A stretch of 64,000 bases of DNA from a virus. Made by a program: the position numbers and the translations under genes. Positions 22,008 through 22,207 of the stretch are shown here, in pieces (the stretch's first letter is position 1; each line of letters opens with the position of its first letter). Below the pieces are notes generated by a model. That model saw only the letters and a program-made list of their open reading frames with translations, did no database searches and had not been told where the DNA came from. Where the stretch lies: the IMG/VR virus record IMGVR_UViG_3300024262_000020, positions 23,616-87,615 of that record. The stretch is one strand, 5' to 3'.

Positions 22008-22207
22008 CATATCAGTTCCGTAACCAGGATTCTGTTCTATCTACACATTTATCTATGCCACTAACCCGTCTATTATTGAATTGCTCACCTTCTAAGACTG
22101 TTCGTGTTGCACCCTCAGTAGTACAATCGGGGTGAACCTCCTACTTTAAGCAATGGTGTCCTGAGTTTCCTCCATCATTTCTGACAGCGTGTAGTCGAAC
22201 TAATATG
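22008..22207 (-). ncRNA. rnpB: Minimal RNase P RNA
   Basis: P1 CATATTAGTTC/GAACTGATATG; P2 CTACAC/GTGTAG; P3 with GAAA loop; GAGGAAACTCAGGAC and ACAGAATCCTGGTTA form P4 with bulged U; P5 CACC/GGTG then AGCAA; AGATAAATG conserved region. Confidence 0.85.

Follow-up and report, generated by a model that had tools for sequence, protein, structure and literature searches.

The DNA analysed here, which we call the window, is a 64,000-nt stretch of an IMG/VR contig of 87.6 kb, for which CheckV estimates 12% completeness. Its source is a tailed phage, and the genes of the window include those for a large terminase (14150-16270), a baseplate wedge protein, a tail fibre, a DNA polymerase and a primase. 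Between two small minus-strand ORFs (22263-22442 and 21752-22000) lies a 202-nt gene for an RNase P-like RNA, also on the minus strand, which runs from the 5′ end of helix P1 at 22208 to the 3′ end of P1 at 22007. The G+C content of this gene is 0.425 compared with about 0.26 in its flanks and 0.19-0.33 in the surrounding region, and the only other G+C peaks nearby are tRNA genes. All tRNA genes of the window, which span 17113-28011, are on the same strand as the RNA gene, and CCA is encoded by some of them and not by others. The RNA gene itself is outside the tRNA array, with the nearest tRNA gene (25030, same strand) about 2.8 kb upstream and a lone tRNA(CUA) about 4.8 kb away. This last tRNA, at 17113-17185 (-), has the anticodon of an amber suppressor, and the long ORFs of the phage are open under code 11. 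Two further tRNAs, at 25283-25366 and 27936-28011 (-), were called by Rfam (38.3 and 32 bits) and are not listed by ARAGORN; these Rfam-only calls fit non-canonical tRNA shapes.

A preliminary description of the locus had placed a TAnnTTTG promoter upstream of the RNA. The motif is indeed present at 22224-22231 (-), but we rejected it as promoter evidence because it occurs in the window at the rate expected by chance (119 occurrences against 121 +/- 11). A sigma-70-like match also precedes the gene (Table 1); the search that returned it found seven such sites against 5.1 expected, which is not above chance and makes the match weak evidence. There is no terminator after the RNA gene, where the next ORF begins within about 7-45 nt, and the minimum free energy (MFE) fold of the RNA alone is unremarkable (z = -1.85). 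Among the public sequencing runs listed, no RNA run contained the stretch.

Table 1. Elements of the RNA gene and its upstream region in window coordinates, with the evidence for each.
Feature	Position	Strand	Evidence
Whole mini RNase P RNA gene	22007..22208	-	cmsearch with model R1, 184.8 bits at 22011-22204; RF00373, E 5.3e-10 at 22009-22206
Sigma-70-like promoter match TTGAAT-16-TATTAT	22218..22245	-	Consensus match only; ends 10 nt before the RNA 5′ end
P1 5′ strand UCAUAUUAGUUC	22197..22208	-	Pairs with GAACUGAUAUGA at 22007-22018; 12 bp
P2 5′ strand CUACAC	22189..22194	-	Pairs with GUGUAG at 22041-22046; 96.7% of cells paired; double changes in 5/6 pairs
P3 hairpin CUGUCA-GAAA-UGAUGG	22172..22187	-	Structure check and covariation in the CM alignment
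J3/4 and P4 5′ strand (CR-I) AGGAA-AC-U-CAGGA, with bulged U	22159..22171	-	P4 97.8-98.6% paired
P5 5′ strand CACC	22155..22158	-	Pairs with GGUG at 22110-22113; 98% paired; 3/4 pairs covary
P6 pseudoknot 5′ strand UUGCU, in J5/7	22149..22153	-	Pairs with AGCAA at 22081-22085; 83-89% paired; 4-5/5 pairs covary
Specificity-domain stub: P7-like AGUAG/CUACU around GAG, tiny hairpin GG-UUCACC-CC, and G-AUUGUA	22117..22145	-	Alignments
P5 3′ strand and J5/15, GGUG-CAA	22107..22113	-	GCAA invariant in the family; aligned to GGaGCAA of the RF00373 model
P15-P16-P17 arm: CAC/GUG, C.GUCU/AGAC.G, GAA/UUC	22059..22106	-	Covariation
J18/2 (CR-IV) AGAUAAAU(G)	22047..22054	-	Invariant; aligns to Rfam consensus CuAGAugAAUG
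J2/4 and P4 3′ strand (CR-V) ACAGAA-UCCUG-GUU-AC	22020..22035	-	Alignments; RF00373 match

The helices P1, P2, P3 and P5 and both P4 strands had been noticed before, and all are present in the window with pairs that covary. The P1 then described, of 11 bp at 22008-22207, is the same element as ours, to which an extra U-A pair adds a twelfth base pair and extends the gene to 22007-22208; in the family, each of the eight modelled P1 pairs has changes in both strands. P1 is followed by GA and P2, then by a single G and P3, and then by AGGAA and the 5′ strand of P4. In the window, the P4 helix reads AAC-U-CAGGA / UCCUG-GUU, and its bulged U is found in all family members. The compensatory changes reported for P4 hold as well, with three pairs altered on both sides relative to the Rfam bacterial consensus, for which we used ..AAAGUCCGGg.. 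/ ..CCCGGCUU.. (also given as ..GAGGAAAGUCCGGgC.. / ..ACAGAACCCGGCUUA..). Between the two P5 strands, a P7-like helix of 5 bp covaries across the family (AGUAG/CUACU against GGUGG/CCACC, GGAAG/CUUCC and CGCAG/CUGCG), and the rest of this stub is made up of the conserved segments GAG and UCG-NUUGNAC plus a hairpin of 2-3 bp. The P15-P17 arm has an internal loop with a nearly invariant CGGGU. In type A RNase P RNAs the GGU of L15 binds the tRNA 3′ end, and the CGGGU internal loop resembles this element. The loop of P17, the small hairpin GAA/UUC, holds the 3′ strand of P6, which is the AGCAA of GGUGAGCAAU; in another subfamily the two P6 strands are entirely different (GCAAGAAG/CUUCUUGC). Close to the 3′ end of the RNA stand AGAUAAAUG, ACAGAA and the P4 3′ strand UCCUG-GUU. 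The P18 hairpin with its GNRA loop is absent from the window RNA, which has 3 nt in that slot, and seven relatives have inserts there of 27-28 nt or longer with GNRA-type loops. Two alternative pairings were discarded. CACC with the GGUG of AAGGUGAGC shows no covariation, whereas the GGUG of GAGGGUGCAA does covary, and the nested helix AUUGCUUA/UGAGCAAU of the MFE fold was reassigned by covariation to the P6 pseudoknot.

Three segments of the RNA, GAGCAA, GUGCAACA and AGAUAAAUG, had been put forward as conserved regions. All three are present, but GAGCAA is not CR-III and GUGCAAC is not CR-II. The GGUG of GAGGGUGCAAC is the P5 3′ strand, which covaries with CACC, and the CAA that follows is J5/15; the Rfam models align this segment in the same way (GgaGCAA). 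The AGCAA within GAGCAA pairs with UUGCU and forms the 3′ side of a P6-type pseudoknot. Since these look-alikes are P5 and P6 strands, no conserved region of the specificity domain (S-domain) is retained. In the type A enzyme, CR-II and CR-III of the S-domain read the T/D-loop elbow of the tRNA; the domain that contains them, P7-P14 with CR-II/CR-III in J11/12 and J12/13, is reduced in the window RNA to the 41-nt stub.

At the gathering score, Rfam gave no RNase P match in the whole window, a search of 1.2 kb (21500-22700) at E<=10 missed the RNA, and RF00010 had no match on the phage's own record. With only 226 nt searched (21995-22220), RF00373 (RNaseP_arch, clan CL00002) matched 22009-22206 (-) over model positions 1-288 with an E-value of 5.3e-10 and 38.7 bits, below the gathering score of 84. 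Because the RNA scores E 5e-10 in the 226-nt search, the blanks of the larger searches are filter losses. The Infernal search with Rfam models that the preliminary description had proposed as a check yields nothing at the gathering score and, beneath it, a match in the 226-nt search. The RF00373 alignment reproduces P1/P2, P3, the P4 strands, P5 with CAA, and P15/16, with the S-domain deleted.

Related viral RNAs connect the window RNA to the bacterial model. A sibling of 207 nt on a 190.7-kb viral contig (L069:10596-10802) passes RF00010 at 118.5 bits, having been reduced by a different route, in which the P7-P11 core is kept and P12-14 and P15-17 are deleted. Longer copies in viral tRNA arrays score 168-209 bits (L043, 325 nt; L072, 296 nt; L088, 375 nt; L025/L046, 367 nt). 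Our covariance model R1 was built from the mini family only, using nested helices with the P4 and P6 pseudoknots left out, and it matches RNAs certified by RF00010 end to end at their own coordinates (L072 67.7, L088 62.8, L069 55.3 and L043 41.6 bits). The hallmark of clan CL00002, a P4 with bulged U between CR-I (GAGGAAnnUC...) and CR-V (ACAGAAnCC..G..UA), is present in the window RNA, as is the single-stranded core of type A RNAs, namely J3/4, J5/15 (CAA after P5), J18/2 (AGAUnAAUG) and J2/4 (ACAGAA).

The structure was derived by hand and checked against alignment A5, which contains nine trimmed members. On the covariance-model (CM) alignment, 94.5% of cells pair compared with 63.7% when shuffled (none of 500 shuffles gets as high) and 32-40% after sliding the partners by 1-3 columns; both sides have changed in 46 of 53 pairs. 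P4 and P6 are 98.6% and 89.4% paired on this alignment even though they lie outside R1, and three P4 positions take the pair types AU21/GC17/CG5, GC21/UG11/CG9/UA1 and AU25/GC10/CG5/UA1. Because a CM alignment leans towards its own structure, we repeated the count on a structure-blind MAFFT alignment (A2), where the paired fraction is 92.1%, compared with 69.1% after shuffling and 28-44% after sliding, and the covariation score is 0.577 versus 0.168; RNAalifold on A2 recovered the P4, P5 and P15-17 helices unaided. Covariation among phage homologues, which had been named as a way to check the locus, is therefore far above shuffled and slid controls in both alignments. Covariation is seen in each catalytic-domain helix (P1, P2, P3, P5 and P15-P17) as well as in the P6 pseudoknot, with pairing of 83-99%. 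Columns that do not vary in the family are those of GAGGAA, the P4 core, GCAA, GG(U), AGAUnAAUG and ACAGAA, and also AGAUAAAUG. Such segments in the bacterial enzyme are the single-stranded stretches that build its active site. Together, the P4 covariation, the invariant core, the homologues in tRNA arrays, the RF00373 match and the reciprocal CM matches bear out the earlier proposal of a phage-encoded, strongly reduced catalytic-domain RNase P RNA. At the level of alignment and covariation, they establish the window RNA as a conserved, structured homologue of RNase P RNA with its entire catalytic domain preserved.

An exact 16-mer scan of IMG/VR returned 22 loci, of which one, L002, is a true relative and the other 21 are chance matches. 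The L002 RNA is directly upstream of tRNA-Lys and heads a run of six tightly packed tRNA genes; the locus has 19 in all. The pattern AGATRAATG-N10-ACAGAANCC, which also fits cellular RNase P RNA, gave 82 viral loci in IMG/VR, and an nhmmer profile made from the window RNA and L002 gave about 35 full-length relatives, 30 of them non-redundant. When 764 kb of sequence was searched with R1, cmsearch returned 53 matches; about 40 are distinct, with lengths of 150-370 nt. The contigs that carry them are mostly 50-470 kb, and the RNA is typically inside phage tRNA arrays; an Rfam scan of 32 family loci found more than 200 tRNAs and two tmRNAs. Both tmRNA genes are in the same tRNA arrays as the mini RNA (L079:1020-1390 and L023:6-363, at 119 and 101 bits).

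The smallest members have 150-158 nt (L047:8984-9133, L057:7654-7808, L100:1547-1704 and L091:9784-9941). They match R1 end to end at 93-99 bits, have 6-8 nt between the P5 strands and no specificity domain, and are, by this comparison, candidates for the smallest RNase P RNAs of bacterial type. From one P5 strand to the other there are thus 117-196 nt in RNAs certified by RF00010, 41 nt in the window RNA and 6-8 nt in these four relatives. One member belongs to a cultured phage, Stenotrophomonas phage DLP6 (KU682439.2; L128), with an R1 match of 93.3 bits at 105776-106016. The match is unannotated and lies inside a tRNA array between CDS AAY80_165 and tRNA-Arg, 10 nt upstream of the latter. 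A blastn search of 50,697 phage records gave no match when the window RNA was the query; the L064 query brought up only the 735-kb genome, and the L043 query only one mislabelled record, with a bacterial rnpB.

The large terminase of the window has its closest counterparts in the four largest curated genomes of phages, first LR756501/3 (735 kb, 52.5% identity) and then LR745206, LR756502 and LR756504 (634-642 kb). These genomes of 634-735 kb form the Mahaphage clade, which is predicted to replicate in Bacteroidetes (Al-Shayeb et al. 2020, PMC7162821), and the window phage is a very AT-rich relative of them. Three of the four carry the RNA, with one R1 match each at 97-103 bits: LR756501.1 at 181314-181536 (-), LR745206.1 at 502062-502276 and LR756502.1 at 614640-614842 (-). 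RF00010 found no match in these three genomes, and under stricter filters neither LR756504.1 nor Tenacibaculum phage PTm1 gave an R1 match. In the Mahaphage copies, the GG/CC pairs of P4, constant elsewhere in the family, have become CG/CG or AC/GU, and these copies are not adjacent to tRNAs. Most probably, 22007-22208 (-) encodes a miniature RNase P RNA of bacterial type in a huge tailed phage of the Mahaphage group, with a predicted role in pre-tRNA processing.

An active ribozyme could also have a main substrate other than phage pre-tRNA, such as phage mRNAs, tmRNA precursors or host RNAs, or work with a new phage protein partner that replaces RnpA. Such a role would suit a gene that does not adjoin tRNAs in the window and in the three Mahaphage genomes, the tmRNA genes of related loci, and the loss of the S-domain, which relaxes the need for a tRNA elbow. 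We nevertheless regard it as unlikely, since the gene is wedged between tRNA genes in most members (L002 by tRNA-Lys, DLP6 by tRNA-Arg) and since the GGU-containing L15-like loop and J5/15 are conserved. In the bacterial enzyme, the L15 loop and J5/15 are the elements that bind the tRNA end. Cleavage of phage pre-tRNA is the function we propose for the RNA.

Two of the three complete Mahaphage relatives with the RNA have their own RnpA of bacterial type, in LR756502.1 at 525123-525491 (L112:1435-1803) and in LR745206.1 at 76408-76755 (L113:1465-1812). The two proteins score 52 and 49 bits with PF00825 (cut-off 22.3) and 51.8 and 43.8 with TIGR00188 (cut-off 38.35), and both have the RNR motif as KRAVDRNRxKRLMRE. 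In the 735-kb genome, which among complete relatives is the closest, the RNA is present and no RnpA was detected. Six more viral contigs carry rnpA (L114-L119), and the RNA is present in the two whose completeness is 97% or more (476 and 483 kb), as well as in one 58-kb fragment. No RnpA was found in the window's 87.6-kb record, which says little since that record is only 12% complete. Host RnpA had been named as the probable partner in the preliminary description, but the protein partner of the window RNA may be either a phage RnpA in the missing ~88% of the genome or the RnpA of the host.

The other 44 RNA-bearing viral records, six of them complete, have no rnpA, so that their RNA must meet a host protein. 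This, together with the near loss of the specificity domain, would fit a non-catalytic look-alike that serves as a decoy or sponge for host RnpA or another RNase P-binding factor and blocks or redirects host tRNA maturation. Conservation, however, extends beyond the protein-binding P2-P3-J18/2 face to an invariant active site (GAGGAA, the bulged U of P4, GCAA and ACAGAA), the gene is beside its presumed tRNA substrates in most phages, and an RnpA of the phage's own, as some of them add, would be senseless for a sponge. We therefore give a decoy little credence and favour a catalytic RNA. That the gene is a decaying remnant of a captured host rnpB with no present function is highly improbable: the large deletions relative to cellular RNase P RNA would fit decay, but about 40 distinct copies in diverse phages keep every helix by compensatory changes with invariant core strands, each complete genome has a single copy, and the gene maintains 42% G+C in a genome of 26%.

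Among known RNAs, type A RNase P RNA (rnpB/M1, RF00010) shares with the phage RNA P1-P5, the P4 pseudoknot with bulged U, J3/4 GAGGAA, J5/15 CAA, a P6 pseudoknot that joins J5/7 to a hairpin loop, the P15-17 arm with a GGU-containing loop, J18/2 AGAUnAAUG and J2/4 ACAGAA. The phage RNA differs in its length (202 nt compared with about 350-400 nt), in the reduction of P8-P14 with CR-II and CR-III to the 41-nt stub, in the lack of P18, in scoring below the RF00010 threshold and in being encoded by a virus. The best Rfam match of the window RNA is the archaeal RF00373 (38.7 bits), yet its core sequence and P6/P15-17 arrangement are of bacterial type, and the partner found in related phages is a bacterial-type RnpA and not the archaeal protein set. 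RNase P RNAs of ~200 nt, called type T (RF02357), were reportedly described in Thermoproteaceae by Lai et al. in 2010, and PMC8172020 mentions them. They resemble the phage RNA in this length and in having retained the catalytic domain while almost all of the specificity domain is gone. No match to the type T model was reported by the 1.2-kb or the 226-nt search; the latter drops overlapping lower-scoring matches of the same clan and may have hidden one. RNase P RNAs of the Candidate Phyla Radiation also fall below Rfam thresholds and variously lack P12, P13, P14, P16, P17 and P18, but they are cellular, single essential copies that keep the S-domain core (PMC8172020). Theta (HDV-like) ribozymes adjoin tRNAs in gut phages and are, like the mini RNase P RNA, phage-encoded and tied to the processing of phage tRNAs (PMC10879173). 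They are small and self-cleave in cis, with an unrelated fold and chemistry, in contrast to a trans-acting enzyme with multiple turnover.

In the model that we propose, the RNA would be transcribed from its own promoter or within a longer transcript and would form a ribonucleoprotein with RnpA, encoded either by the phage, as in the closest complete relatives, or by the host. This particle would then cleave the 5′ leaders from the polycistronic tRNA precursors of the phage, making its tRNA supply independent of the capacity of host RNase P. In bacterial enzymes the S-domain contributes much of the affinity for tRNA, and with this domain nearly gone, the activity of the RNA alone may be poor. 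An RNA that lacks the elbow-reading domain would grip its substrates by the acceptor stem, by the 3′ end (with the L15-like loop) and by contacts between protein and leader, and the loss of elbow reading could allow the structurally deviant tRNAs of the phage to be tolerated. More tentatively, and with somewhat less than even confidence, we suggest from these genomes that the largest known phages carry a private and complete RNase P, consisting in the Mahaphage clade of a 200-nt ribozyme with only a catalytic domain plus RnpA. Such an enzyme would mature tRNA arrays independently of the host and, since it would no longer read the elbow, free the phage tRNAs to drift to non-canonical shapes that are poor substrates for host enzymes or for anti-phage tRNA nucleases of the host. 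If this is true, the relatives of 150-158 nt would be the smallest natural bacterial-type RNase P ribozymes.

To our knowledge, RNase P RNA has been regarded as a cellular and organellar gene, and a full-text literature search found no report of a virus-encoded one. A viral RNase P RNA that lacks the S-domain would be a new viral form of a known ribozyme class. A widespread and unannotated viral version would add a ribozyme to the parts of the translation system that huge phages bring with them. The series of 196, 41 and 6 nt between the P5 strands offers natural examples of trimming that bear on the minimal ribozyme and on the function of the S-domain, and cultured phage DLP6 provides a system for a direct functional test. 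The family also exposes a blind spot of annotation: at the gathering score Rfam misses nearly all copies, including those of the published 634-735 kb genomes, and the speed filters of routine annotation hide the mini RNA family. In megaphages, Rfam was reported to find only tRNAs and a tmRNA (Lui et al. 2021, PMC8172020), and the paper that described the huge phages makes no mention of RNase P (Al-Shayeb et al. 2020, PMC7162821).

A short-form pattern searched in 185,579 species, represented by one genome each, gave only four matches, all of them on contigs of metagenome-assembled genomes (MAGs) with tRNA arrays, and by this search the mini form appears to be essentially absent from these species genomes. 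One of these contigs, with a tRNA array and the mini RNase P RNA (L125, JBBACR010000001.1), is filed as a 'Candidatus Pacearchaeota archaeon' MAG. It is the same 425,361 bp as the IMG/VR viral contig of L081, which carries the RNA, and is probably a mis-binned huge phage.
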